Positions 14,276 to 49,847 of a stretch of 64,000 nucleotides of DNA are shown in pieces. A program made the translations under genes and the position numbers. Source of the stretch: a candidate division FCPU426 bacterium. GTDB taxonomy: Bacteria; Oederibacteriota; Muellerivitia; Muellerivitales; Muellerivitaceae. A model generated the notes under the pieces. That model had not been told where the DNA came from. It was given only the letters and a program-made list of their open reading frames with translations, and searched no databases. The stretch spans positions 1,248,001 through 1,312,000 of the forward strand of contig CAVRAL010000001.1 of assembly GCA_963719085.1 (NCBI GenBank), read 5' to 3'. The stretch's first letter is position 1. Each line of letters opens with the position of its first letter.

Positions 14276-17164
14276 TCAACGCAGGACTAAGACCTTGAGA
14301 ATTTGACTGAAGGACTGGCTCCCTTTCACGCGGACCCTCAGGTAATAAAGTCCGTTAGCCACCGGCAGGTCCTCGTGATCCCGCAGGTTCCAACTCAGAG
14401 TGGTCTTTCCGGAAATTGGGAAGCTTGCGCAGCCGATCTTCCGGAAAGCGGTGGTGAAAACGTCAAAAGACAAAACCGCGTTTCCCGGCGCCTGAACGTC
14501 AAAATAAACATTCCCTCCCGTCGAAACCGGGTTGGGATAAGGGGGTCCCAGGGTGACTTCGACAGGCCCCAGGGTGGGACTGGGTGTGGGGCTCATGGTA
14601 ATGGTGGGGGTTGGGCTGACGGTCGGCGACGAAGTCATAGTGGGTGAAAACGTTAGGGTCGGCGTCAAGCTGGGGGTCGGGGTCCACGTGGCCGTAGGGC
14701 TTAAGGTAATCGTGGGGGTCGCCGTCGGGGTAAAGGTCGGGGTCCCTGTCGGCGTCAAGGTGGACAAGGCGCAGCAATTCGAGGTATAGGAGCCGGAAGC
14801 GCCCACGGACCAAACCTGTCCCTCATAGGAAAGGCTCACTTGCGCGAATTGGGAAACCGGACCAAAGGGCGTTTGCGCCAGGGTTTGGGTCCAATTGGCC
14901 CCGTCCTGGGAAACCCAAACATCCGAGACCGGCCCCGAAGCCGTTTGGCCCCCCATCACCCAAATGGAGTTCGCGCAAACCACCGCCAGGTGATAGGCCC
15001 GGGGGGAAAAAATCGCTCCCGGAGTCGTGGGATTGGATTGGGTCCAATTGATTCCATCTCCCGTCGACCATACGTCATTGGTCACTCCCCCGGCGGTTTG
15101 GCCTCCCAAAACCCATAACCGGTTGTTGAAGGCCACCACCGCCAATCCTTTGCGGGCTGAAAAAGGCGGCGTAGCCGCGGCGCTCCAAGAGGAACCGTCC
15201 GAAGAACTCCAAGCGTCATTGGTCAAGCCCGAGGCGGTTTGTCCGCACAACACCCATAAATTATTTTGGAAAACCGCCGATCCGAAATCCAACCGGCCGG
15301 CGAATCCCGCGTTGGAAGTTCCCAAGTTGTAGTGGAAGCCGTCGAATGAAAACCAAGTATCGTTTTGGTAAGTCGCGCCGTTCAAAAGCCCGCCCAACAC
15401 CCAAATGTAATTTTTAAAAGCCGCCACGTTATAGTGGATTCGGTTCAACAAAGGCGCTTGCGAGGTGCCGAACAGGCTCCAACCCATCGCGGGAATCCAA
15501 TGGGCGATCGTGATGGGATTGCTTAGGGCTCCTCCGCCTAACTCAAAAGGCCGGGGACCATTGCCGTCCCCCACGTCAAAAACCGCTCCGCCCACCGATT
15601 GCAGGTCGTAAGTGGTTTGAGGCGACCAAAAAGCCCCCGGTTGGGACAGGCAGGCCGCCGGGGTGGGCGTGGCGGTCGCCGGAAAAGGCGTGGGCGTGAT
15701 CGTTAAGGCGGGCTGGGCGCCCAAGGCCAAAGCGGATAAAACCGCCGCGTTCAAATCGAGCCGACCCCAACCACTGGTCTGGTTGTAGGTCCCCGGGGCG
15801 CCGATAATTTGGTGGGCCGTATTTTCCAGTATCTGAACCACCTGGGTGTTGGCCAAAGTCGGATTCAGGGCGAAAAGCAGGGCCGCCGCGCCCGCCACCA
15901 TGGGCGCGGCCAGCGAAGTCCCCGAAGCCACGGCGTAATTGTTGTCGCAGGGATCAACTTGAAAGGCCGTATCCACCGTCGGCGAGGGGCAATTGAGGAT
16001 GCAGCCAAAAAAATTATCAGCGGTATCAAAAGTATTGAAGAGGCTGACCAGCGCTCCGCCGGGCGCCACCATTCCCATGCCGGCTCCCGTTTGGGTGTAA
16101 GAAGTCACCGTATCGGCGGGTCCCACCGCGCCGACGCCAATCACGCCGGGAAAGGCCGCCGGATAACTTAAAGGCACCCCGTTGCCGGCGTTTCCAACCG
16201 CCGCCACCACCACGCAGCCCTGATTCAGCGCGAAGGTGACCGCTTGTCCTTCCAAGGGATCATTGGCGGTAGTCCCCAAAGACATATTGATGACCTTGGC
16301 TCCATGGAGCACGGCGTAATAAATCCCCTCGACCACCGTACCCGTGGTGAGCGAGCCCGTGGAATCGGCCCCCTTCACCGGCATGATCTTCACCAATCCC
16401 GGATAGCCGGCCACCCCCACCGTGCCGCCATTGAAACTACCGGCGGGAACCGTCCCCGCGGTACAAGCGTTTGTTCCGCCCGCGTTGTTCCACTGGGCCG
16501 CTAAAATGCCGGCCACCATGGTTCCATGGCCGTGATTGTCCACCGTATCGGTGGTATCCCCGCCCCAATCGCCGGAAGAGTTATAACCGGGGATAAAAAG
16601 CGAGGACGGAAGATCCGGATGCCGGGTTTGGGAATAGTCCGAGGCCACTCCCGAATCCAAAACCGCCACCGTCACCGGGTTGGCCGACGGACAAGCCAAA
16701 TTAGCCCCCAGTTGAGCCCAAGCCGACGGCGCGTTCACGAGAAGATAGGGCCAATTGACATTTCCGTTGCCGGTGACCACGCCGCAAGCCGGGCTGGGAA
16801 TAACGCCGGAGGTAAAGTAGGCGTCGGAGGCGGCGGCCGGAGGCGCGCAGCTTTGAAACAATTGATAGCGATAATCAGGCTGGGCCAGCGCCACGTCCCC
16901 GAGTGCCTTGACCAGTGCCAAGGCCCTTGGCACTGTCATCCCGCTCTTAAGATAGACTTGAAGAACGTCGGAGCGAAACGCGAGCGGCTGGTAAGTTCCC
17001 AAAAGGGACTGAACGCGGCCTAGGTCCAATGAGGAACCGTTCGGCTTGAATTGAACCAGGATTTCATCGGGCAAATAGGCGTCGGAAGTTGAAACCGCCG
17101 CGGCCGACGGCCAAGCCAGTGACAAGGTCAGCAGGATCAAAGCGAACCGGAGGATGAATACCAT
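14276..17164 (-). CDS. Secreted S8 serine peptidase with Kelch-like repeats, Thr/Pro linker and T9SS-CTD-like C-terminus
   Basis: Signal peptide. Catalytic triad VAVLDSG / HGHGTMVAG / SGTSLAAP. Repeated WVLGG...NDxW.S.DG..W. PTxT linker. PYPNP...GLYYLRV...KVLVLR. Confidence 0.88.
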
Positions 17165-18296: not shown

Positions 18297-18332
18297 AAAA
18301 AAGCCCTTAAACATTTCTGTTTAAGGGCTTTT
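18297..18332. terminator. Bidirectional terminator downstream of the GH30 gene
   Basis: AAAAGCCCTTAAACA-tttc-TGTTTAAGGGCTTTT perfect stem. Confidence 0.8.
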
Positions 18333-18369
18333 AACTATTGGGCGGAGTTTTAAATCCGCCCGCTTCTTT

Positions 18370-21300
18370 TTATTTTACGATCGCGACTTTCACGGTCGAG
18401 GTGCTGGACTGAACCCCGGACTTCACCGTCACCGTCACGATATACAGCCCGCTGGACAAGGACTGGTTTTCCAAGTTCCGCTCGTTCCAGTAGAGGCTGT
18501 GGCCCGAGGACTCGAAACTGGTCTCCTCCACGGTCTTCACCCAGACCAATTGTCCGTCCAAGCTGTAAGCCCGGAAGGTCAGGACCCCGCTCGGATCAAT
18601 TCCCGGCGATGTGCTGACGGCTTTCGCCCCGATCGAGGAGGCGCTTCCGGTCACATTCACCGACAGGTTCACTCCGTTCCCCGTGGAAGGGTTCGGGAAT
18701 GCCACCACATTGGCCGTCTGCGCGGCCGGAGCCGTCACAACCGGTTCCTGTCCCCAAATCAGCGATCCGTTCAGATATCCGGTGATTTTGGTCGACAAGG
18801 TGAAGCTGGTCGAAGCCGTGTAGCTCCAGTCGTTATTCTGAAGCATGTTGCTCCAATCGCTCTTGTTGAAACGGCTTTGGATTTGCACGCTCTGGCCCGG
18901 CTGCAGCGTCAGGTTCCCCGCGAACTTATAGCTCACGTAATCGGTCTGGCCACCCAAAGTCGTGGCCACCACCGAGGTCAGCACATCCGCCGTGACCGTG
19001 CTTCCCGCGGGCATCCATCCCGCCCAGTCCACCCAGGTTTGGATCGATTGGCCCGTGCAGTCGCAGTTGAACCAGTAGCGCACTTCCACATTATTCAGGT
19101 TCAAAGGCGCCGTCCCCGTGTTCTTCACCTCAATCTGGGGATGGGGGCTGTTGGTGGTATTCGCCGTGACTCCCGACAACAAATACACCGTCAAGGATCC
19201 CGTGCCCGTAGGCGTATTCGTCGGAACCAAGGTGGGCGTCGAAGTCGGCGGCAAAGTCGCCGTCGAAGTCGGGGGCACCGGCGTATTCGTCTTAGTCGGA
19301 GTCGCCGTCGCGGTCGGAGGAACCGCGGTGGCTGTCCAAGTCTTCGTCGCTGAGGCGGTCGACGTGACCGTTAAAGTCGCGGTCGGAGGCACCGGCGTCG
19401 AAGTAAAGGTCGGCGGAACCGGGGTGTTCGTCGCCGTTGCCGGAACCATTGTCAGCGTCCCAATCGGCGTATCCGTCGTCGTGGGCGGCACGCTCGTGTC
19501 CGTCGGACTAGCGGTCGGCGTCAAAGTCGCCGTCAGAGTCGGCGGCACCGGCGTATTTGTCTTAGTCGCGGTTGCCGTCGACGTCAAAGTTGGAGGCACT
19601 GGCGTGGCTGTCGCTGAGGCGGTCGCGGTGGCCGTCGGGCTGGCAGTCGATGTACGGGTCGGTGTGGCGAGTGCCGGCTGCGGAATCAACTGCAAGGCCT
19701 CCACCATCGCGCTCGTGTCCGTACTGCTGGTCCCCAAGAACTGAATGGTGACCGCTCCCGCGCTGGGGGAGATATTGTTGATCACCTCGTTCAAGGCCTT
19801 ATTCGCGCCCACTTGGGCGAAAACATCCAGGTTCGTTAAAACCGTGACCCCGTTTACGGCAACATCGAACACCCGGTCGCCGACCGCCTCATCGCCCGAA
19901 TAGGTCTCGGCGAAAAGCAGGGTGGCTTGATAGCTCCCGGTCGGAACATGAAACACGTAGCTGAAATTGGAGCCGTAACGCTGGGTGTCATAAAGCGTCG
20001 AATCGTTGGTTCCCGCGATCGTCCCGCCTTCAGCGATGGTGCTGCCCGCCGTAAATTGGGTATCGGCCGACCAAGCGTTCCCGAGCGAATCGGTATAAGC
20101 CGGGCCGCCCGCGTTCACGCGCCAGGTGGAGGCGATAATCGGGGCCGGCGTGTTGGTAAAAGTCGCGGTTGGGGTTGGAGGAACCGCCGTAGCCGTCCTC
20201 GTTGGCGTGGCCGGCAAGGGTGTGGACGTCGAGGTGGCAACCGAGCCACCGTTGTTGACGGCCACAAAACTCGTCACACTGGAACCGGTCAAGCTATAGG
20301 TGAAGGAATTTCCCGACACCGGCACAGCCGACTTCTGGACTAGGTTGTTGCTGCCGTCGGTCACCCAGGGGATGACGGACGTGACATTGACCCCGTTCAG
20401 GCTGAAGGTCTGGCTGGTGGTCGAGCTGTTGTTGTTGATGGCCACGAAAACGATGGTCTGCGGTGAAGACGTATTGGTGTTCTTGAAGGCGCTGACCAAG
20501 ACGCCGGAAGTCGGGCTCGCGGTCGCCCCCATGCGGTAGTATCCGGGACGGATGAACTTGCTGTAATTACCAAGAACATAGGCCTTGATGGTCAGGGTGT
20601 TGTTGCTGATCAGGTCGGTAAGCCACCAATAGTGAAAAGCGTTCATGCCGGAATTGACCAGAGAGCTTTGGATCCAACCCGCCTCCTGCAGGGCTCCCGG
20701 AATATCGGTGGTATTCCCCGACATCTCGGTTTCCCACCATTCCTGGTTCGTCACATGGGTGAAGCCAAAGGAAGCCAGGGGCGCCGGATTCGGGGTGCCA
20801 TAAAGATGGGTTCCGATAATGCCGATCATGGGGGCCACGGTCGCATCGTCCATGGCGGTCGCGGCCAGGTTCATGCCGTCGGTATTGTCGGGCTCAGGAA
20901 GCATGATTTTGGTCGAAAGACCCGCGTTTTGGATGGCGTTATGGAAAGCCTGCGCGTAAACATCAAACTGGCCGGCCGTCCAAAGACAGGCTTCGTAAGT
21001 CGGGTTAAAGTTCGGCTCATTCTGGATGGAAAGGGCGTAAAGGTTGATCCCGTGGCTTTGGCAATACTGGATGAACGAGACTTGGTAAGAGGCCAATCCC
21101 GTGTCGGCGCTGTTGGGGGATCCGGAGCTGGCGCCCAGGAAAGTATCGTTGCTGGCGCCGCCATCGACGTTGTCATTGGCCTTGTATTGGGCCGGGGGGG
21201 ACCACTCGGTAGCCCATAAAAGCACGTTGGGATTGACCGAATGGGCCGTCACGAGACTATTCACTTCCGACGAGAAGTTATTGGTGGGATCGATCCGGGC

Positions 21301-21519
21301 CCGCAGGGAGCTAAGCCCGATATGCCCGTTCACGTTGTCGTCGGCGAACAGGGCTTGGCCCTGGCTTCCGATGGCGCTCCAGGCGCTGGAGGCCCCGATG
21401 CAATGGATGAATTGGTTGGTTTGGGTGGCGTCCACCGTACAGGTGCCCGCCCACGCTTTCGAAAAACTCGCTAAAACCAGAAGTAAAAAAGACGCGGTAA
21501 AAATTTTTTTTATTTTCAA
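18370..21519 (-). CDS. Secreted GH30 (glucurono)xylanase-like enzyme + malectin + Thr/Pro linker + CBM3 + CTD-like domain
   Basis: WSPPA..K, SIQNEP (acid/base), WWETE (nucleophile), YSKFIRPGY.R. Malectin (RVNAGG..YTDS.G..W.AD, LLFAE). CBM3 (NTG..PLNL..V.VRYWF, SDWSN..Q.NDWSY). AFPNP...GLYIV. TTG start behind GGAGG. Confidence 0.85.
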   Translation of the reverse strand: MKIKKIFTASFLLLVLASFSKAWAGTCTVDATQTNQFIHCIGASSAWSAIGSQGQALFADDNVNGHIGLSSLRARIDPTNNFSSEVNSLVTAHSVNPNVLLWATEWSPPAQYKANDNVDGGASNDTFLGASSGSPNSADTGLASYQVSFIQYCQSHGINLYALSIQNEPNFNPTYEACLWTAGQFDVYAQAFHNAIQNAGLSTKIMLPEPDNTDGMNLAATAMDDATVAPMIGIIGTHLYGTPNPAPLASFGFTHVTNQEWWETEMSGNTTDIPGALQEAGWIQSSLVNSGMNAFHYWWLTDLISNNTLTIKAYVLGNYSKFIRPGYYRMGATASPTSGVLVSAFKNTNTSSPQTIVFVAINNNSSTTSQTFSLNGVNVTSVIPWVTDGSNNLVQKSAVPVSGNSFTYSLTGSSVTSFVAVNNGGSVATSTSTPLPATPTRTATAVPPTPTATFTNTPAPIIASTWRVNAGGPAYTDSLGNAWSADTQFTAGSTIAEGGTIAGTNDSTLYDTQRYGSNFSYVFHVPTGSYQATLLFAETYSGDEAVGDRVFDVAVNGVTVLTNLDVFAQVGANKALNEVINNISPSAGAVTIQFLGTSSTDTSAMVEALQLIPQPALATPTRTSTASPTATATASATATPVPPTLTSTATATKTNTPVPPTLTATLTPTASPTDTSVPPTTTDTPIGTLTMVPATATNTPVPPTFTSTPVPPTATLTVTSTASATKTWTATAVPPTATATPTKTNTPVPPTSTATLPPTSTPTLVPTNTPTGTGSLTVYLLSGVTANTTNSPHPQIEVKNTGTAPLNLNNVEVRYWFNCDCTGQSIQTWVDWAGWMPAGSTVTADVLTSVVATTLGGQTDYVSYKFAGNLTLQPGQSVQIQSRFNKSDWSNMLQNNDWSYTASTSFTLSTKITGYLNGSLIWGQEPVVTAPAAQTANVVAFPNPSTGNGVNLSVNVTGSASSIGAKAVSTSPGIDPSGVLTFRAYSLDGQLVWVKTVEETSFESSGHSLYWNERNLENQSLSSGLYIVTVTVKSGVQSSTSTVKVAIVK
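18742..19202. repeat. CBM3-coding module, copy 1 (paired with 22005-22465)
   Basis: Colinear at constant offset 3263 with long identical runs, e.g. TCAATCTGGGGATGGGGGCTGTTGGTGGTATTCGCCGTGAC. Confidence 0.8.
19655..20216. repeat. Malectin-coding module, copy 1 (paired with 23053-23614)
   Basis: 562-nt colinear, highly similar copy with long identical stretches. Confidence 0.85.
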
Positions 21520-21623
21520 AACAGACCTCCATCTCAAATTACGGCGCCGGATAAATCAGCCTTAACCAGCAATGCCCGTTGCTTCCCTACCCCAACCACT
21601 TTCCCCCATCATCAAAAAATGAA

Positions 21624-24600
21624 TCACCTCAAAATCAGGACCTTCGTGCCAGCCGTACTGCTCTGGCCTTTTGATTTCACCGTCACCGTCACGTAATAAA
21701 CCCCATTGGCCAAAGACGCCCCGGCCAAATCCCTCTCATCCCAATAAATCACATGGTTCCCCGACGAGCCCAAACTGGCCCCGGTCACCGTGGTGGTCCA
21801 GATCTGCCGGCTCGCCAGCGTGAACACCCGGAATGTCACCTGCGCGTCCGGATCCACCACCGTGGGCGAGCCCACTTCCTGCGCGGACGCCCCCGAGGCG
21901 CCCGCGCCAGCGGTCAAGTTGACCGAGAGGTTGACCCCGCTCCCCGTGGAGGGATTCGGAAAAGCCACCACGCTGGCTGACTTCAAGGCCGAAGTCACGG
22001 CGGTCGGTTCTTGCCCCCACACCAGTACCCCGCCCAAATACACCGTGATTTTGGTCGTCTGGGTAAAACTGGTGTCCGCCGCGTAGCTCCAGTCGTTGCT
22101 CTGGGTCATGTTGCTGTAATCGCTCTTGTTGAACCGGCCTTGCACCTCAATAAACTGACCCGGTTGCAATACCAAGTTCCCGGAAAACTTGTAGCTGATG
22201 TAGTCGGTCTGCCCACCCAGAGTCGTGGGTTGAACCGTCGTCTGGACATCCCCCGTGACCGAAGTCCCGGCGGGCATAAGTCCGGCCCAGTCGACCCAAG
22301 ACTGCAGGCTTTGGCCCGTGCAGTCGCAATTGAACCAGTAGCGCACTTCCACGTTGTTTAGGTTCAAAGGCGCCGTCCCTGTGTTTTTAACCTCAATCTG
22401 GGGATGGGGGCTGTTGGTGGTATTCGCCGTGACCCCCGACAACAAATACACCGTCAAGGATCCCGCGCCGGCGGGAGTCGCCGTATTCGTCGGCGCCAGA
22501 GTGGGCGTTGAAGTCCACGTCGCTGACGCGGTCGGCGGCACTGGGGTCCTAGTTAAAGTAGCCGTGCTGGTGGATGTCGGAGGCACCGCGGTCGCGGTCC
22601 AAGTCTTCGTGAAGGTATTCGTGGGTGTCGCTGTCACAGTCGATGTCACCGTTGAGGTCGCGGTCGGCGGCACCGGAGTATGGGTCGCCGTGAACGTGGG
22701 CGGCAATGGGGTATTCGTCAAAGTTGGCGGCACCGGGCTCGAGGTCCAGGTAGGCGTATCTGACGCCGATGCCGAAGCTGTAGGCGAGGCAGTTTCGGAG
22801 GCGGTGGTCGTGACCACTAAAGTAGCGGTGCTGGTAACGGTCGGCGGCAAGGTCGCCGTCAGAGTCGGCGGCAAAGTCGCCGTCGAAGTCGGCGGCACCG
22901 GCGTATTTGTCCTAGTCGCGGTCGACGTCAATGAAGCCGTCGACGTTAAAGTCGGAGGTATCGGCGTAGCCGTCAAAGACGGCGTGGCCGTTTTCGTTGC
23001 CGTAGCCGTAGCCGAGGCGGTTGGGGTAGACGTCGCGCTAGCCGTCGCTGTGCGGGTCGGCGTGGCGAGCGCCGGCTGCGGAATCAACTGCAAGGCCTCC
23101 ACCACGGCGCTCGTATCCGGGCTGTTCGTGCCGATGAATTGGATCGTCACCGCTCCCGCGCTGGGAGCGATGTTATTGAGTACTTCGTTCAGGGCCTTGT
23201 TCCCTCCCACTTGGGCGAAAATATCCAGGTTCGAGATGACCGTCACCCCGTTCACGAGAACGTTGAAAATACGGTCCCCAGCCGCCATATCACCCGAATA
23301 GGTTTCGGCGAAAAGTAAGGTCGCCTGATAGGTTCCGGTTGGAACATGGAAGATGTAGCTGAAATTCGAGCCATAGCGCTGGGTGTCATAAAGCGTGGAA
23401 TCGTTGGTTCCCGCGATCGTCCCGCCTTCGGCGATGGTGCTGCCCGCCGTAAATTGGGTATCGGCCGACCAAGCGTTCCCGAGTGAATCGGTATAAGCCG
23501 GGCCGCCCGCGTTCACGCGCCAAGTGGAGGCGATAATCGGGGCCGGTGTGCTGGTGAAAGTCGCCGTTGGAGTAGGAGGAACCGCCGTAGCCGTCCTCGT
23601 TGGCGTGGCCGGCACGGGCGTCGGGGTAGTTGCCTTGTTCGCCTTGGAGGTCGCCAAGCCAAGCTGCCAGGGAATTAAGTTGTAGGAACTGGCCCCATTA
23701 TTGGGATTGTCGCCCTGGTAGAGAAAGGTCAGGTTGTTGAGGTTGATGGAATCGGTCTGGTCATCGCCGTCAATGACCGCCCCGCCGCTGCTGAAGTCCG
23801 AGGTCCAGTTCGAGACGCCGGAATTAAAGGTGACATTGTGCGAACCCAGAAAAGGGGTGTTGAGGTTCGCCGTATTGCCCAGCGGCGTCCAGGTTCCGCC
23901 CAGGCTGGTGGCGGTCAAGGCGCGGAAGAAGCGGTGGCCGTCGCTGCCGATGCACTCAATGTCGGCCAGATAGCCCCCGCCATTTTCCACAGTATAAACA
24001 TTGTCCGCCTCAAAGAGATTGAACTCCGTATCCGTGTAGACGATGACAGGCGTGTTAAATCCATTGGGAAAGTTCGCGAGCGAAGTTGAGCTACGGTAGA
24101 AGTTCCCGTTGTCCCCGCAGAAGAACAGGTAGGCGTTGGTGGAATCGCAGATGACCCAGAAATCTATCCAATTGCTCACGCTCGAGGGCTGAGACGCGAA
24201 GAAATTCTTAGGCGTCGTCCAATTTTGGGGCTGGGTCGGGTCGCTATTGGTGGAGTACTGGGGTTGTCCGCTCTGAAAGATCAGGTACCATTTGTTCTGG
24301 GGGGCGAAATAAAAAACTTGGGGCGCGGTGTGATAGCCCGAGAAACCGGCGGTGTTGTCCATGAAATAAGGCGTGGCGGCGCCGGCCTGGCTCCAATCGC
24401 TGAAGTGCAGGTATTCCATGCCGTAGTTGCCGGCCGAGTTGACCGAAGAGGCGTAAACGATGTATTGGCCGTTATAGAAGACCGTGGAAGGGTCCTTCAC
24501 GGCGATCATGTTGTGGGTGGAGTCGCTCTTGGGAGTGATGAGGGGGGCGGTCGATGTCCATGAAAAGGAGGTGGGAATGGTCTGGGCGTCGAGCGCGGAA

Positions 24601-24659
24601 ACATTCGCCCCGAGTAGTAGGATGATCAGGCTCGGCAGAGCCGCTTTTAAAGATTTCAA
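21624..24659 (-). CDS. Secreted GH62 alpha-L-arabinofuranosidase + malectin + Thr/Pro linker + CBM3 + CTD-like domain
   Basis: F.W.ST.PLI.PK.D, VKDPS, APQVFYFAPQNKWYL, WIDFWVICD, LFEA.NVY, FLYQG..P. Same accessory modules as the GH30 gene. Start is TTG 24659 or ATG 24665. Confidence 0.9.
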   Translation of the reverse strand: MKSLKAALPSLIILLLGANVSALDAQTIPTSFSWTSTAPLITPKSDSTHNMIAVKDPSTVFYNGQYIVYASSVNSAGNYGMEYLHFSDWSQAGAATPYFMDNTAGFSGYHTAPQVFYFAPQNKWYLIFQSGQPQYSTNSDPTQPQNWTTPKNFFASQPSSVSNWIDFWVICDSTNAYLFFCGDNGNFYRSSTSLANFPNGFNTPVIVYTDTEFNLFEADNVYTVENGGGYLADIECIGSDGHRFFRALTATSLGGTWTPLGNTANLNTPFLGSHNVTFNSGVSNWTSDFSSGGAVIDGDDQTDSINLNNLTFLYQGDNPNNGASSYNLIPWQLGLATSKANKATTPTPVPATPTRTATAVPPTPTATFTSTPAPIIASTWRVNAGGPAYTDSLGNAWSADTQFTAGSTIAEGGTIAGTNDSTLYDTQRYGSNFSYIFHVPTGTYQATLLFAETYSGDMAAGDRIFNVLVNGVTVISNLDIFAQVGGNKALNEVLNNIAPSAGAVTIQFIGTNSPDTSAVVEALQLIPQPALATPTRTATASATSTPTASATATATKTATPSLTATPIPPTLTSTASLTSTATRTNTPVPPTSTATLPPTLTATLPPTVTSTATLVVTTTASETASPTASASASDTPTWTSSPVPPTLTNTPLPPTFTATHTPVPPTATSTVTSTVTATPTNTFTKTWTATAVPPTSTSTATLTRTPVPPTASATWTSTPTLAPTNTATPAGAGSLTVYLLSGVTANTTNSPHPQIEVKNTGTAPLNLNNVEVRYWFNCDCTGQSLQSWVDWAGLMPAGTSVTGDVQTTVQPTTLGGQTDYISYKFSGNLVLQPGQFIEVQGRFNKSDYSNMTQSNDWSYAADTSFTQTTKITVYLGGVLVWGQEPTAVTSALKSASVVAFPNPSTGSGVNLSVNLTAGAGASGASAQEVGSPTVVDPDAQVTFRVFTLASRQIWTTTVTGASLGSSGNHVIYWDERDLAGASLANGVYYVTVTVKSKGQSSTAGTKVLILR
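22005..22465. repeat. CBM3-coding module, copy 2
   Basis: See 18742-19202. Confidence 0.8.
23053..23614. repeat. Malectin-coding module, copy 2
   Basis: See 19655-20216. Confidence 0.85.
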
Positions 24660-24920
24660 TTCCATCTCCTCAGTTCTTTTCACTTCTCGATCATGGCCTT
24701 CGAGGTCAGTGATCCAAATCCAAGGTCACCTGGATCCGGTCCTCCAAAAACGGTTTAAAATAAAATTTAAAAGTCAAACTGGGGCCCAACTGACAAAAGC
24801 CCTGACAGAATGGGTTGAGATGGCGGGGGCATGGTTCTGTCCAATAGATGGGTGTTTGGGGAAAAGACTCTATTCCCTAAAAACGATTAAAATTACGGAT
24901 TGAATGGGAAATCGGTAAAC

Positions 24921-26231
24921 CTAAGGGCTTTGCGGGTGGGCGGCTTCGTACTGGTCCAACCAAGCTTTCAACTTCACATCCGACGGGTTCAACCGGTAGG
25001 CCTGCTCCAAACATTGAACCGACAACTGGGTCTTCCCGGCCTTCCAATAAGCCAAGCCTAATTGATGCCAAGCCTCGGCATCCTGGGGATTGTCTTCGGT
25101 GGCTTTCTCGTATTGTTGAATCAAGGCCGCGGCCGCGAAATCCGTCACGGTGGCCGGGCCGCTGGCGGGAACCTCAAATAGCACCTTCACGGAAGATTTG
25201 GCCGGGCCGGGCGTGACCGCGGGCACAGGCGTGGGAACCGGCGTCACGAAAACCGTCACCGCTTTGACCGGAACGGGTGTTGGATTGGGGAAATCATAAG
25301 AAAGGCTGATCCGGTGGGAAGTCCCCAAGTCCCCATAGGGGACAAAAGCGTAATCCAAAGTGAGCGGCTCCAGCCGGATTCCCGCCCCCGCGCTGAAATT
25401 GGTAAAGCCCGAGACTTGGTTGTCCGAAAGCGGAAGTTGATAGCCCAGCCTCAAGAAATAGTTTTTTTGGAATCCCGCCTCGATCCCTCCCTGGAGCCGG
25501 CTCACCCCCTGGGGCTCGTAATCACCCGAGAAAGCCGTCAAAAAAGATAGGTCGCTGTTGAGATGAAAAAGACAGGAAAGGCCGCCTTTCAAATCGCTGG
25601 CGAGGGCTTGACCCGACACGGGCGTCCCAAAGCCGGAATAAACCAGGCCCAACCGAAAATCTTTCTCAGGGATCCACAACAACCCCGCTTCCCCGGCCAG
25701 GCTGGAGTAAAGTGAATCCACTATTTTTTGCTGGGTCCCATAAAGCGCCACGCCCATCGAAAAACCCTTCGCCCATTCCTTTCCCCATCCAATACTCAAT
25801 GCGATGTCGTTATCCAAGTAGGTACCCTGGTCGACCCCTGAGGAATCCCGCGCGTCCAGGGCTCCCCAAAAGACATATTGGAGCGCCCCCGCGAATCCGC
25901 CCAGGCCGCCCGCGGGCAGGCCCACTAAAAGGGTTTCCTCAAAGGTGCTTCCCAAGTAGCTGTTGTGGTTCAAGCTGATGCGGGTGTCGGCCAGGCCCGA
26001 GAGGCCCGCGCTGTTGAAAAACAAGGCCGAGTTATCATCGGCCAGACCCGCGAAAGCGTCCCCCATCGCGTCCGCGCGGGCGGAAGCCCCCAGCGCGCTT
26101 AAGGGCGTTACCAGCGACGCGTTGGGGGAAATTACCTGCCCCCAAACCACCGCGCCGAAAAAAAACAAAAACACTCCCCCGCGTCCCAACGAGACAAAAC
26201 CCGCGCGTAAAAAATAAAAAGAGCGCGTCAT
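24921..26231 (-). CDS. PorV/PorQ (UPF0164, FadL-like) outer-membrane barrel fused to a Pro/Thr linker and TPR
   Basis: SARADAMGDAFAGLADDNSALFFNSAGL N-terminal motif, alternating beta strands, DYAFVPYGDLGTSHRISLSYDF, then PTPVP and a TPR (NPQDAEAWHQLGLAY). Confidence 0.82.
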   Translation of the reverse strand: MTRSFYFLRAGFVSLGRGGVFLFFFGAVVWGQVISPNASLVTPLSALGASARADAMGDAFAGLADDNSALFFNSAGLSGLADTRISLNHNSYLGSTFEETLLVGLPAGGLGGFAGALQYVFWGALDARDSSGVDQGTYLDNDIALSIGWGKEWAKGFSMGVALYGTQQKIVDSLYSSLAGEAGLLWIPEKDFRLGLVYSGFGTPVSGQALASDLKGGLSCLFHLNSDLSFLTAFSGDYEPQGVSRLQGGIEAGFQKNYFLRLGYQLPLSDNQVSGFTNFSAGAGIRLEPLTLDYAFVPYGDLGTSHRISLSYDFPNPTPVPVKAVTVFVTPVPTPVPAVTPGPAKSSVKVLFEVPASGPATVTDFAAAALIQQYEKATEDNPQDAEAWHQLGLAYWKAGKTQLSVQCLEQAYRLNPSDVKLKAWLDQYEAAHPQSP

Positions 26232-27646
26232 TTTTTCACGGCCAGGATTTGGGTTTGGAACGACTGCGTTTGTCCCGAGTCATAATGAAGGACCACGTGA
26301 TAAAAATAATGGCCGGGCGCGAAGGAACGCACATCCAAGGAACTGGAAGCTTCCCCGGCGGCCTTAGCCTCATTGACCGTGGCCGCCAAGTTGCCCCAGG
26401 CATTCCAAACCTGGATGTCGGCTTTTCCCGGCTGGGCCATGGTGTACACAAAGGTGACCGTGGGACCCGAGGTCGGATTGGAGTAAACGTAAGGCTGGTT
26501 CACCGGCACCGGCGGGGTAGCCACGGGCGTGGGACAAGCGGAACCGATCGCCAGGCTGGCGTAAGCGGCGGTATTTAAATAGTCGTCCTCATTACCGTTA
26601 AGCATCATTTGACCGTCCCGGCAATTGCCCCCGTTGTGGTTGATATCCAATCCCACGTCAAATCCCAGCTCCGTTCCGTCCGAAGGCGTCATCCCCAAGG
26701 TCGTCCAAGGAATGGAGGCTTCCACAATGTACCCGCCCGCGGTCGTTGTGGTTTTCATCACCACGCCGGTTACGCGGCCGTTGCTTTCCACCGGCGTCGT
26801 GTCGCCCCACCGGAAAAAATACTCAAAATCATGGGACGTAATGGTCAGCGACTGGTCATTGGCGGTGTTCAAGTAAAGCTCCACGGTCGAGTTATGCCAA
26901 AGTGTGCCGGTTCCCGTGTTGGTCAATTGACTGTCCGTCACTTGGGCGCCGAGATAAAGGTTGCTGGAGTCCCATAAAAATTTGACCAGCGCCGAGGAGC
27001 CAAAACTCTGCCCGGAAACCGTCTTGGTGACCGAGGCGAAGGGGCTCCCGCTGTTCCAGGCCCAATCATCCAGGATCCCATCCACCACCGCGGTTTGTTG
27101 GCAGGCGTTGAGGATTTGAGGCGTGGGCGTGGGCGCCGGCAACGCGCCGGAAAAAAGATTCTCATGGGGGACGGGGCTCAAAGCTTGGGAAGCGCTTTGC
27201 CATATCAGTTGAATTTGGGGCGTTCCCCCGTTGGCGAAATAATCGACTTCAATCGGAACCTTGGTTCCCGCCGTCATCGGAACGGTTCCCGTAAAGGTCG
27301 ACAAGGTCGTGTTTTCAGTCCACTGGCTCACCAAGACTTGTCCGTTGACGATGACGCTCACCCCGCCATTGACATCCGCCGTGAAGGTGTAAGTCTCGCT
27401 ATAGTCCGCTTCAATTTGGCCGGTCCACTTGACCGAAAAGGCGCTGGGGGAAACCCCGGGATTGGGCGGACACCCTTGCCAAAAATACTCGACCGCGGGA
27501 TCCACTTCCGTCACCACCGCGGTGTTGAAATTGACGCCGTTGTAATAAACCGCTTGAAGGCCGTCCCCGTTGGTTTGGGAAAGTCCGAGGGAAGGAATCA
27601 TGGATAGGAAAAAGACGAGGAAAAACTCAAAACGTTTTAAATCCAT
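26228..27646 (-). CDS. Secreted non-catalytic PA14 + CBM9-like sugar-binding protein with CTD-like C-terminus
   Basis: GDGLQAVYYN..FSVKWTGQI..YTF (PA14). VDGILDDW..LWD..NLY..VTD..GYIVEASIPW..LG..LGFDV (CBM9-like). YVYSNP...PGHYFY...ILAVKK. Confidence 0.8.
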   Translation of the reverse strand: MDLKRFEFFLVFFLSMIPSLGLSQTNGDGLQAVYYNGVNFNTAVVTEVDPAVEYFWQGCPPNPGVSPSAFSVKWTGQIEADYSETYTFTADVNGGVSVIVNGQVLVSQWTENTTLSTFTGTVPMTAGTKVPIEVDYFANGGTPQIQLIWQSASQALSPVPHENLFSGALPAPTPTPQILNACQQTAVVDGILDDWAWNSGSPFASVTKTVSGQSFGSSALVKFLWDSSNLYLGAQVTDSQLTNTGTGTLWHNSTVELYLNTANDQSLTITSHDFEYFFRWGDTTPVESNGRVTGVVMKTTTTAGGYIVEASIPWTTLGMTPSDGTELGFDVGLDINHNGGNCRDGQMMLNGNEDDYLNTAAYASLAIGSACPTPVATPPVPVNQPYVYSNPTSGPTVTFVYTMAQPGKADIQVWNAWGNLAATVNEAKAAGEASSSLDVRSFAPGHYFYHVVLHYDSGQTQSFQTQILAVKK

Positions 27647-27713
27647 CGCAAGAAAAACCTCCCGAGGAATTAATCTTATTATGCTTCCAGTCGGAAAGTT
27701 AAACCCTAAAAAT

Positions 27714-28370
27714 TTATTTGAGATTGAGGCGGATAGCCTTAGTTTGGTGGGAATCCCCGGTTTGAACGTCAATCCTATAGTTCCCCGCGGGCGCCGGTTC
27801 CCCCGCCGAAAGATTCCCGTCCCACTGGAAAGCCCTTTGGCCCGGCTCCACAAAACCGGTGAATAAGTGCCGTACTTCTTGGCCCGCCGCGTCCAAAACC
27901 CGGACCGTCACCAATGACTTTTCCCGTGTGTCCACTACCACGCTTAATTCCTCGCCTTCCGCCGAAGGAGCGGTTGCTTCGGAGTGAACAGGCGCCGACG
28001 GGGATTTCAGGATGACTTTAGGCTCGAGAACCCGCGAAACAGGCGCCATCGGCGCGAGGGGCTGCGGCGCGGCCGGTTGGACGATTTCAGAAACCGGCCA
28101 GAATTTCCAGACCAACAGACCCACCCCGGCGGCGACCGCCGCCGCCAAGCCCGCCCAACCCAGGGCTCCCAGTTTTCCGGCCGCGGGCGCCCATTTTTGA
28201 AGCGAACCGGGCAATTCGGGCAAAGGCAGTCCCGTCGCCAAATAATGGGTCTCAAGCAAGCCCTCAAAGCGCAAAGCCGAGTCCGGGGATTCTTGCAACA
28301 GCTTCCCCAACAAGTCCGCCTCGGACTCGCTCAGTTCCCGCTCAAAAAACGCTTGGATCAGGTCAACCAT
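27714..28370 (-). CDS. Putative anti-sigma factor with periplasmic FlgD-Ig/CTD-like domain
   Basis: Overlaps the sigma stop. N-terminal helical ASD-like segment without Cys, one TM, Pro-rich linker, VTVRVLDAAGQEVR.L..WDG....AG.Y.I.V. Confidence 0.72.
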   Translation of the reverse strand: MVDLIQAFFERELSESEADLLGKLLQESPDSALRFEGLLETHYLATGLPLPELPGSLQKWAPAAGKLGALGWAGLAAAVAAGVGLLVWKFWPVSEIVQPAAPQPLAPMAPVSRVLEPKVILKSPSAPVHSEATAPSAEGEELSVVVDTREKSLVTVRVLDAAGQEVRHLFTGFVEPGQRAFQWDGNLSAGEPAPAGNYRIDVQTGDSHQTKAIRLNLK

Positions 28371-28935
28371 TTCGCCCTTCCTCAATCATCTGTTCAACGA
28401 GGATCTTCAAAGCCTTTTTGCACCGCGACAACCGGGACATCACCGTCCCCAGCGGAATCTTCATCGACTTGCCGATCTCGATATAAGTCTTTTCTTCCTT
28501 ATCGCGCAAAATCACGATCTCCCGGCACTCGGCGCCGATCTTGTCCAAGCCTTTGTCGATCAGCTGAAGCTTGGCGGCCTTGTCCTCATCCCGGGACTTT
28601 TGAGCCTCGCCCTCCAGGGACTTATGCCGCAAAAGGTTTTCCAAATCCGCTTCTTCTTGAACCACCATCTTGGCCCGCGACCGGTACCGGTTATAACAAA
28701 GATAGATGCAAATCTGCGTCAACCAAGTGCCCAGCGCCGACCGAAACTCAAAAGCCGGGAGCTTTCGAAAGGCGATCATAAAAGCTTCCTGCACCAGGTC
28801 TTCCGCCTCCGAATCCCGATAGCCTAAGAGAAACACGCAATCCTTATAGAGGCGTTCCCGGTATTGGACGTAGAACTGGGTCTTAGCCGCTTCATCGCCC
28901 TGGAGAATTTTTTGAACCAACTCCCGGTCTTCCAA
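28363..28935 (-). CDS. ECF RNA polymerase sigma factor
   Basis: DRELV..IL.GD..A, AEDLVQEAF, F..RS...TWL..I, region 4 Y.EI...M.IPLGTVMSRLSR. Confidence 0.92.
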   Translation of the reverse strand: MEDRELVQKILQGDEAAKTQFYVQYRERLYKDCVFLLGYRDSEAEDLVQEAFMIAFRKLPAFEFRSALGTWLTQICIYLCYNRYRSRAKMVVQEEADLENLLRHKSLEGEAQKSRDEDKAAKLQLIDKGLDKIGAECREIVILRDKEEKTYIEIGKSMKIPLGTVMSRLSRCKKALKILVEQMIEEGRNG

Positions 28936-28986
28936 ACATCCCCCTGAACATTAGCCTTTTGAAGAGGCCTTTTATTCCATTTTAAG

Positions 28987-49634: not shown

Positions 49635-49847
49635 ATGCGAAACCAAAAAACCATCATCGAGGAATACTTCACCCAACGATTAAAACTAAGACGGGAACGC
49701 CTGGCCCACCATTTGACGGCGCCGTTGGAGCTCAATTTCTATTTTCAATCCACGCCGATCCCGGACAAGTGCCCCAAGATCGACGATACCCCAGCGGACG
49801 AAAGGAGCCATTCATGGACGCCCAAATCGAAAAACCCGGGTGGGTGA
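49635..49847 (+). CDS. Small hypothetical protein
   Basis: AGGAG RBS. First ORF after the class II promoter. Confidence 0.45.
   Translation: MRNQKTIIEEYFTQRLKLRRERLAHHLTAPLELNFYFQSTPIPDKCPKIDDTPADERSHSWTPKSKNPGG

Follow-up and report, generated by a model that had tools for sequence, protein, structure and literature searches.

A conserved gene module joining an ECF sigma factor to a PorV-type barrel, with a predicted link to xylan enzyme genes, in a candidate division FCPU426 bacterium

Introduction

Several described signalling systems resemble, in their parts or in their logic, a four-gene locus that we analyse here in a 64,000-nucleotide stretch of DNA (hereafter the window) from a candidate division FCPU426 bacterium. 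At 24921-28935 on the minus strand, the window carries four co-oriented genes that encode an extracytoplasmic function (ECF) sigma factor, an anti-sigma factor, a protein designated X and a PorV-like barrel with a tetratricopeptide repeat (TPR) tail, PorV-TPR; with the downstream genes for GH62 and GH30 enzymes the co-oriented genes number six. Judged by its parts, the closest known system is PorA-PorV-PorXY-SigP, and judged by its logic the module resembles FecA-FecR-FecI, the SusC-like systems of Bacteroides and SigI/RsgI. The comparisons below follow the available portions of the cited papers.

In Porphyromonas gingivalis, the C-terminal domain (CTD) of PorA has two partners, PorV at the cell surface and the sensor PorY in the periplasm, and binding to PorY activates SigP (PMC7712824; PMC12152298). 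The likeness lies in a small CTD protein with a lectin-like passenger that binds PorV upstream of an autoregulated ECF sigma factor, the CTD being the active signal part. The PorA circuit differs in its two-component relay (the kinase PorY and PorX) with no anti-sigma factor described in those portions, in a general PorV shuttle that is devoid of a TPR tail, in its dispersed genes and in its output, which is the secretion machinery. In the module, the genes form one compact operon and encode a dedicated barrel-plus-tail and an anti-sigma factor bearing an immunoglobulin-like (Ig) domain; there are several substrate-specific copies, and the predicted output is glycan-degrading enzymes. No kinase or regulator was found in the four-gene module in the window or at loci L001 and L002, and the membrane anti-sigma factor takes that place.

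FecA-FecR-FecI (PMC2709373) and the SusC-like/anti-sigma/ECF sets in polysaccharide utilization loci of Bacteroides (ECF239/240, ECF243; PMC7826278) share with the module a barrel, a periplasmic anti-sigma domain, an autoregulated sigma factor and neighbouring uptake or degradation genes, and such TonB-dependent transducer systems likewise occur as several substrate-specific paralogues per genome. The module differs from the FecA type by its 14-strand PorV/FadL barrel, its separate CTD-tagged ligand binder, and its periplasmic TPR tail and Ig domain, and its four proteins match no TonB-dependent receptor, signalling-domain or FecR family of Pfam or NCBIfam.

The SigI/RsgI systems of Clostridium thermocellum (PMC6852018, PMC10328401, PMC4711584) are alike in that paralogous pairs, each tied to one polysaccharide, use carbohydrate-binding module (CBM) or PA14 sensors and drive enzyme genes. 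They differ in having the sensor fused to the anti-sigma factor, in belonging to a monoderm and in using a SigI-type rather than an ECF sigma factor. In the window a secreted protein distinct from the anti-sigma factor carries the PA14 and CBM9 domains, and the sigma factor matches ECF models. A first interpretation of this DNA, made from the letters alone (the sequence-only reading), had proposed a diderm analogue of SigI/RsgI; the analogy stands in logic but not in build, because here the anti-sigma factor does not itself carry the sensor domain.

The dual membrane-spanning anti-sigma factors (Dma) of Bacteroides thetaiotaomicron, which go with ECF21 sigma factors (PMC13088901), are alike in having an N-terminal domain, one transmembrane helix and a long disordered tether directed towards an outer-membrane beta-barrel. 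In Dma, barrel and anti-sigma factor form one polypeptide, whereas the module has an Ig-ended tether, a separate barrel with its own tether and TPR tail, and a CTD-tagged partner. As far as the cited portions describe them, the PorA circuit, the FecA type, SigI/RsgI and Dma each have defining features that the module lacks. In the literature covered, a search for PorV together with an anti-sigma and an ECF sigma factor led to P. gingivalis only, and no description of the module was found; the genomic-context supplements of the ECF reclassification paper were outside this search.

We conclude that the module is real and conserved, and that it represents a variant of ECF cell-surface signalling which seems to be undescribed. 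With a probability of roughly 0.6, it links transcription of the enzyme genes beside it to the recognition of a plant polysaccharide, in this case xylan. The evidence computed in silico comprises domain identities, folds, strict co-inheritance, a one-to-one pairing of the module with the dedicated tail of X (CTD*), and a promoter type with a module-specific -10 box.

Results

Genes and proteins of the module

The four genes are arranged as follows.

28363-28935, minus strand: ECF sigma factor, 190 aa; conserved TTG start; Pfam regions 2 and 4; TIGR02937
27714-28370, minus strand: anti-sigma factor, 218-aa membrane protein; ATG start, the longest open reading frame (ORF) beginning at TTG 28385
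26228-27646, minus strand: protein X, 472 aa, secreted; signal peptide, PA14 domain (27173-27565), CBM9 domain (26561-27085) and CTD* (26231-26509)
24921-26231, minus strand: PorV-TPR, 436-aa outer-membrane protein; barrel (25293-26102) and tail (24924-25199)

The sequence-only reading had described these genes as two overlapping pairs, and they are found as such: the sigma and anti-sigma genes overlap by 8 nt, provided that the ATG at 28370 is the anti-sigma start, and the genes for X and PorV-TPR have ATGA in common as a stop/start overlap. The domain make-up that it had assigned to them (sigma, anti-sigma Ig, PA14-CBM9, PorV-TPR) was likewise borne out by family models.

The sigma factor matches Sigma70_r2 (PF04542, E 1.2e-10) and region 4 (PF04545, E 9.6e-8; PF08281, E 6e-7), and scores 78.6 bits with TIGR02937 against a cut-off of 42.9; all NCBIfam equivalog scores fall far under their cut-offs. 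With regions 2 and 4 only, in about 190 aa, it has the build of an ECF (group 4) sigma factor. A co-transcribed anti-sigma gene and an autoregulated promoter, also typical of this group, are predicted in silico from the 8-nt overlap and a conserved motif.

Conservation of the module

Comparison of the four proteins with their own genome (3.04 Mb, 99% complete) by tblastn revealed two further copies of the module, giving three paralogous modules with 30-48% identity (46-48% for the sigma factors):

C4:1039158-1043670: module B (pectin); order sigma, anti-sigma, pectate lyase-malectin-tail, PorV-TPR, then GH28
C4:937169-941307: module C; order X, PorV-TPR, sigma, anti-sigma

Ninety-nine genomes of the phylum were surveyed, 30 of which are other members of the same GTDB family. 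A full-length anti-sigma factor is present in all 30 of these, with one to ten matches each, and is rare outside the family, one case being genome G039. PorV-TPR was found in 29 of the 30, with 109 matches in total. For 68 of the 77 full-length anti-sigma matches, PorV-TPR lies at most 8 kb away on the same contig and always on the same strand; the other nine are mostly on short contigs. Single in-frame stops (TAA, TGA or TAG) were noticed in 13 of the 109 PorV-TPR matches (examples are G048:C11:325368-326684, G068:C26:279811-281031 and G050:C14:72247-73533); these may be decaying paralogues or assembly errors.

Twenty loci of relatives were fetched, and their module genes were identified by blastp and hidden Markov models (HMMs) only. 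One of them, L050, belongs to another family; leaving it out, 24 modules were obtained from the 19 same-family loci, two further loci of this genome and the window. All 24 contain exactly one anti-sigma Ig protein and exactly one X/CTD* protein. Three gene orders were seen: sigma, anti-sigma, X, PorV-TPR in twelve modules (order 1); sigma, anti-sigma, PorV-TPR, X in six (order 2); and X, PorV-TPR, sigma, anti-sigma in six (order 3). The arrangement is not a product of chance, as it is present in three copies in this genome and recurs throughout the GTDB family. The four genes are therefore conserved together in relatives, which had been named beforehand as a point on which the proposal of a module could fail.

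The locus in G039 is a variant:

L050:7888-10201: sigma, anti-sigma (Ig), then a 347-aa protein

The 347-aa protein has a signal peptide, Gly-rich hydrophobic segments and the same strand-plus-TPR tail as PorV-TPR, and has no PorV barrel; its likeness to PorV-TPR (hhalign probability 99.1) is confined to the tail. No CTD* protein was seen near the G039 sigma pair. The full strand-plus-TPR tail is confined to the GTDB family and G039, and since in G039 it follows the sigma pair on a barrel-less protein, it is the tail and not the barrel that travels with the sigma switch.

A further observation concerns the surroundings of module B, which lies in an island (C4:997964-1054020) with at least 13 ORFs that carry the standard cargo tail described below, including a polysaccharide deacetylase, GH28 and pectate lyase.

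Protein X and its dedicated tail

Protein X matches PA14 (E 8.9e-20) and CBM9_1 (E 1.4e-27). The sequence-only reading had regarded it as a binder with no catalytic domain, which is right for the window, where there is no room for one, and wrong in general, as the pectin paralogue has a pectate lyase. What the third gene holds constant among modules is CTD*, which that reading had missed. It consists of the last ~90 residues of X with the pattern ...FAPGHYFY.V.L.YDSG....VLAVKK, and is a likelier PorV ligand than the Ig domain of the anti-sigma factor. At the extreme C-terminus of X, CTD* scores as a weak type A CTD, with 24.8 bits for TIGR04183 (cut-off 23) and 20 bits for PF18962, under the cut-off of 27; CTD* of the orthologues in L049 and L045 reaches 28-32 bits with PF18962.

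CTD* is distinct from the standard cargo tail (...LANGLYYV...KLLILR), which is found on 43 ORFs of this genome. The two are related (hhalign probability 94), and CTD* and the anti-sigma Ig domain are not (probability 11.5). A search of the genome with a CTD* HMM gave strong scores for the three module X proteins only (117-138 bits). The next match (C4:242964-245441, 42.6 bits) was considered as a fourth module and rejected: it is a sedolisin-type peptidase with a PorV paralogue that has no TPR, and with no sigma pair.

Passengers ahead of CTD* vary, and we observed that they track the substrate of the neighbouring genes, which we count as support for a sensing module. PA14-CBM9 adjoins GH30/GH62 or GH44, PL1-malectin adjoins GH28, a DUF11/lectin-like protein adjoins a PL4 lyase, and an NHL/SBBP propeller adjoins NHL proteins. 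In three modules X has no passenger and consists of a signal peptide and CTD* only, in 118-142 aa.

These data bear on the possibility that there is no signalling link at all: X and PorV-TPR, a surface protein and the anchor or shuttle reserved for it, would simply be the leading members of the regulon of an ordinary envelope-stress-type sigma pair whose Ig domain senses something else. Pairs of a PorV barrel and a CTD protein do exist without a sigma pair, for example at the sedolisin locus (C4:241999-245441), and the genome has 22 PorV_fam matches. On the other side, the four parts are co-inherited in three gene orders, including one with X and PorV-TPR upstream of sigma; the full tail occurs only where the anti-sigma family occurs, and in G039 it stays beside the sigma pair on a different membrane anchor; and strong CTD* matches are confined to modules. 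We consider this explanation quite improbable.

Two other observations concern X-like and PorV-like proteins. At C4:241672-245429, the sedolisin/kumamolisin-type peptidase with a type A tail is immediately followed downstream by the PorV paralogue that has no TPR, and a PAS hybrid histidine kinase adjoins the pair. A metagenomic protein of 604 aa (P0103) contains CBM9 and PorV-TPR in one call, either by read-through of the ATGA junction or as a true fusion.

Promoter-like motifs and the predicted regulon

The sequence-only reading had also missed an ECF-type promoter-like motif before the sigma gene that is repeated before neighbouring enzyme genes. The relevant features of the window are the following.

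28951-28978, minus strand: P1, GGAATAAA, 16 nt, GCTAAT; ECF-type promoter-like, just upstream of the sigma gene
24841-24876, minus strand: P2, GGAATAGA...CAAACACCCATCTATTGG; between PorV-TPR and GH62
21624-24683, minus strand: GH62 arabinofuranosidase-malectin-CBM3; predicted regulon gene with a standard cargo tail (HMM 91.4 bits)
18370-21537, minus strand: GH30 (XynC-like) xylanase-malectin-CBM3; predicted regulon gene with a standard cargo tail (HMM 71.8 bits)
18299-18362, minus strand: two hairpins behind the GH30 stop codon, the second with a T-run following it; transcription probably ends here

The motif GGAATA(A/T)(A/T), followed after ~16-18 nt by a -10-like box, lies directly before 22 sigma genes of related modules. 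The module loci, 432,143 bp in all, contain GGAATAWW 130 times, with 44 sites lying in intergenic DNA upstream of a co-oriented ORF. For 59 composition-matched control words the averages are 49 occurrences and 2.6 upstream positions (the maximum of 11 upstream belonging to words that overlap the motif). In 21 of the 24 modules a second site precedes a neighbouring non-sigma gene (19 by an automatic rule, plus the window and L041); no such site was found in L039a, L043 and L048a.

Within the 64-kb window, the P1-type pattern GGAATA-N17-19-CTMA occurs twice against 0.29 expected; the second site (49661-49689, plus strand, GGAATA-N19-CTAA) is compatible with chance and was set aside. The xylan-type motif is present in the whole genome only as P1 and P2, and the -10 region of P2, CAAACACCCATCTATTGG, recurs unchanged ahead of the orthologous enzyme gene at L039:13692. 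No GGAATA site precedes GH30, 86 nt beyond GH62, and GH30 is therefore read as co-transcribed with GH62.

The -10 boxes differ by module type: ACAC(C/T)AAT in xylan modules, CTAAG in pectin modules, CGTC(T/C)T in module C and L047, and CCCACTAAC in L045. The boxes of sigma and neighbour promoters, the latter picked by position and -35 box, agree at 8.38 of 12 positions within a locus (n=21) and at 6.76 between loci (n=336), a difference that none of 5000 permutations reached. We predict from these motifs that each paralogous sigma factor would regulate its own gene and control the adjacent enzyme genes.

Synteny, together with the shared promoter type and its module-specific -10 box, thus upholds the earlier proposal of a conserved regulatory module that spans the envelope, goes with polysaccharide enzymes and has seemingly not been described before.

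Outside module B, pectin-type sites (GGAATAAA...CTAAGCC, with the -10 box as before GH28) were noticed at C4:38124 (plus strand) and C4:1167881 (minus strand), and may mark distant members of a sigma B regulon. Downstream of the xylan genes, the window also encodes a subtilase (S8)-Kelch fusion with a standard cargo tail (14276-17164, minus strand), before which no GGAATA site was seen.

The anti-sigma factor and its Ig domain

An AlphaFold2 (AF2) model built on a 20-sequence alignment (mean predicted local distance difference test score, pLDDT, 79.7) is confident at both ends of the anti-sigma factor and in the transmembrane helix, with a disordered tether between. Its parts are:

28197-28370, minus strand: N-terminal cytoplasmic three-helix domain, residues 1-58; AF2 helices 4-10, 15-27 and 29-46, pLDDT ~90
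28104-28166, minus strand: transmembrane helix, residues 69-89; AF2 helix, hydrophobic stretch in the alignment
27957-28103, minus strand: Pro-rich disordered periplasmic tether, residues 90-138; pLDDT ~50, alignment gaps, length varying among paralogues
27726-27956, minus strand: periplasmic FlgD-type Ig domain, residues 139-215; FlgD_ig, AF2, Foldseek and PDB profile

The zinc anti-sigma motif HxxxCxxC (PF13490) is absent, with no Pfam or NCBIfam match in residues 1-95, and could not be formed, since residues 1-49 contain no Cys and one His. PDB profile and Atlas searches with the N-terminal domain gave nothing usable apart from one Atlas lead, itself weak (score 0.91), which points to a cluster with zf-HC2 in 39% of its members. 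The family of this domain comprises 350 cluster representatives among 1.84 billion (E ≤ 1e-3), and FlgD_ig is present in 127 of the 131 representatives of at least 190 aa. Public names of relatives of the anti-sigma factor and PorV-TPR are limited to 'hypothetical', 'FlgD Ig-like domain' and 'tetratricopeptide repeat protein'.

That the C-terminus folds as an Ig domain, as had been supposed, was confirmed. It matches FlgD_ig (E 3e-13, residues 146-210) and is modelled as an Ig sandwich with pLDDT 93-98. FlgD leads the Foldseek list (7eh9, E 4.6e-5), in which PorZ, PorU and a type IX secretion system (T9SS) substrate CTD stand lower, and it is also matched in a PDB profile search (E 1.6e-9). 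A likeness to the C-termini of neighbouring secreted enzymes, also proposed earlier, is found at the level of profile and fold (hhalign probability 93 between the standard cargo tail and the Ig domain) but not in pairwise comparison, where BLASTP is insignificant (E 0.56 against the GH62 tail, E 0.51 against CTD*). The step from there to a 'CTD mimic' was not supported. The domain has no match to the type A CTD models TIGR04183 and PF18962, only to FlgD_ig and FlgD equivalog models, and in a search of this genome with an Ig HMM the genuine flagellar FlgD (52 bits) scores above any cargo tail (at most 44.7 bits). The domain is thus a generic FlgD-type Ig, not specifically cargo-like, and the case for mimicry appears weak.

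The FlgD in question (C1:1237581-1238456) was the fourth Ig-HMM match and was rejected as a further anti-sigma factor, as it lies beside FlgE. This FlgD-FlgE pair (C1:1237578-1240266), ~8-10 kb ahead of the window, suggests that the organism is flagellated; its FlgD is the nearest relative that the anti-sigma Ig domain has outside the modules.

The fold would also allow for direct sugar sensing, in which a barrel of FadL/PorV type lets in oligosaccharides that X has captured or released, to be bound in the periplasm by the Ig domain much as RsgI sensor domains bind glycans. The barrel is indeed a member of the FadL/PorV channel superfamily, carbohydrate binding is common among Ig-like sandwiches (the Foldseek list includes GbpA and the Wzt carbohydrate-binding domain), and RsgI offers a precedent in the available portion of its description (PMC6852018). 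Against this, the conserved Ig positions (W183, D184, G185, G190, G196 and Y198) are the same across xylan, pectin and propeller-type modules, with no sign of substrate-specific divergence, and neither the passenger-less X modules nor the conserved tail would have a role. Such sensing is, in our estimate, very improbable.

The PorV-TPR barrel and its secretion context

PorV-TPR scores 99.9 bits with NF033709 (PorV_fam, cut-off 90) and has TPRs by Pfam, so that the PorV-like barrel with an extra TPR described earlier is established. In its AF2 model, a signal helix and an N-terminal hatch precede 14 strands, from which a ~50-residue disordered linker leads to four helices that form two TPRs (pLDDT 95). 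Foldseek ranks PorV chains from the Flavobacterium translocon highest (8gl6_F, E 3.2e-13; 6h3i_F, E 1.5e-10), with FadL family members next, and the NF033709 score and the 14-strand FadL-like barrel together place the protein in the PorV/PorQ family. The even number of strands places the tail in the periplasm. In the tail alignment a V.V.F..P strand motif precedes two TPRs with a conserved QCFE. Barrel-only PorV relatives occur in many candidate phyla.

The protein does not score as the T9SS PorV equivalog (NF033710, 39.3 bits against a cut-off of 250). No match in this genome was found for GldK or for GldM, the control for the latter having matched no control genome either, and PorU is matched in its CTD part only. 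From this, the genome would seem to lack the canonical type IX motor and sortase. A SprA-like ORF of 1966 aa (C1:945192-948674) scores below cut-off. Beside the 22 PorV_fam matches the genome has 45 FlgD_ig matches, and PorV-like barrels may serve here as general anchors of tail-bearing proteins. Examples of the expanded PorV/PorQ barrels are C1:750759-751907, C4:42846-43991, C1:530373-531713 and C1:779863-780816; several such barrels share an open frame with a FlgD_ig domain, and database relatives also with OmpA.

Discussion

The output side of the proposed circuit, from the sigma factor to the enzyme genes, is well supported in silico. On the input side, we infer surface display of X, contact between the periplasmic parts, proteolytic release and a glycan as the input. 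X would be exported and held at the outer membrane by CTD* through its cognate PorV-like barrel, with its glycan-binding domains facing outwards. The barrel would present the ~50-residue disordered linker and the periplasmic tail, with its short strand motif and two TPRs, and the anti-sigma factor would span the inner membrane, its Pro-rich tether placing the Ig domain in the periplasm. Binding of glycan by X may alter the assembly of X, barrel and tail, and the Ig domain may detect the alteration. The anti-sigma factor would then be inactivated, probably through regulated proteolysis, and the freed ECF sigma factor would transcribe its own operon from P1, as a positive feedback, and GH62-GH30 from P2.

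Which of the periplasmic parts touch was approached by a mirror-tree comparison of 16 modules, which, with short domains and linked genes that share their history, is too weak to settle contacts. Of the domain pairs compared, the barrel and CTD* show the closest co-divergence (r 0.86; partial r 0.73 given sigma), which fits a private barrel-tail pair. The Ig domain shows partial correlations of 0.45 with CTD*, 0.39 with the barrel and 0.02 with the TPR tail, and these values would weakly favour a contact of Ig with CTD* or the barrel over one with the tail. The two clues on contacts diverge, as the distribution of the tail in G039 speaks for the tail and the mirror-tree speaks against it.

The near-zero Ig-tail correlation is one of several observations that weigh against the proposed circuit. 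The N-terminal domain of the anti-sigma factor matches no curated anti-sigma family of Pfam or NCBIfam. P1 lies only ~14 nt before the TTG start, leaving a very short leader of ~7-10 nt, and in gene order 3 X and PorV-TPR are not obviously behind a GGAATA site. The selection of neighbour promoters by position and -35 box also limits what their -10 agreement can tell. Finally, the lack of GldK, GldM and PorU matches leaves the route of CTD proteins over the outer membrane unexplained.

The PorA precedent, in which, by the portions of the reports available, a CTD binds PorY in the periplasm, leads us to keep as the main rival a variant with CTD* as a periplasmic ligand of the Ig domain (or of the tail). 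The barrel would drain X to the surface, and the sigma factor would report export through the barrel, or shedding of X onto its substrate, rather than a conformational relay. The passenger-less X of three modules means that CTD* itself carries the function, the Ig-CTD* correlation exceeds that of Ig with the tail, and the place of X inside the sigma operon in orders 1 and 2 makes a feedback loop. An export gauge has no need of a passenger that tracks the substrate of the neighbouring enzymes, however, and leaves unexplained why the barrel tail is conserved, even without a barrel in G039; CTD* and the Ig domain are also unrelated by hhalign, though binding partners need not be homologous. On balance we regard this variant as unlikely, if well short of negligible.

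Taking again the reading in which glycan recognition by X is relayed to the sigma factor, the module may be a third independent way in which bacteria sense insoluble polysaccharides, besides TonB-dependent transducers and RsgI. We put this forward tentatively, at slightly less than even odds. The receptor would be a PorV-type barrel with an exchangeable CTD-tagged lectin or enzyme; CTD-PorV recognition would have been co-opted for signalling without the canonical T9SS motor; the signal would pass from the strand-plus-TPR tail to an Ig-tipped anti-sigma factor; and a -10 box of its own for each paralogous sigma factor would make insulated, substrate-specific switches.

To our knowledge, the sensing of insoluble plant polymers by diderms outside Bacteroidota and Proteobacteria is largely undescribed. 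What this window contributes is a xylan-type member, three paralogues in one genome, the covariation of promoters, the confinement of CTD* and the barrel-less variant in G039. With four small genes, a predicted promoter pair, a readable -10 specificity code and natural xylan, pectin and other variants, the module is a testable candidate. If the proposed circuit is true, CTD-PorV signalling, so far represented only by PorA of P. gingivalis, would gain a new architecture and a lineage without canonical type IX machinery, and ~350 protein clusters (50% identity) annotated as 'hypothetical' or 'FlgD Ig-like' would acquire a function. Enzyme regulons and their substrates would then be predictable from the sequence of metagenome-assembled genomes alone, and the modules would supply a family of orthogonal sigma/promoter pairs.

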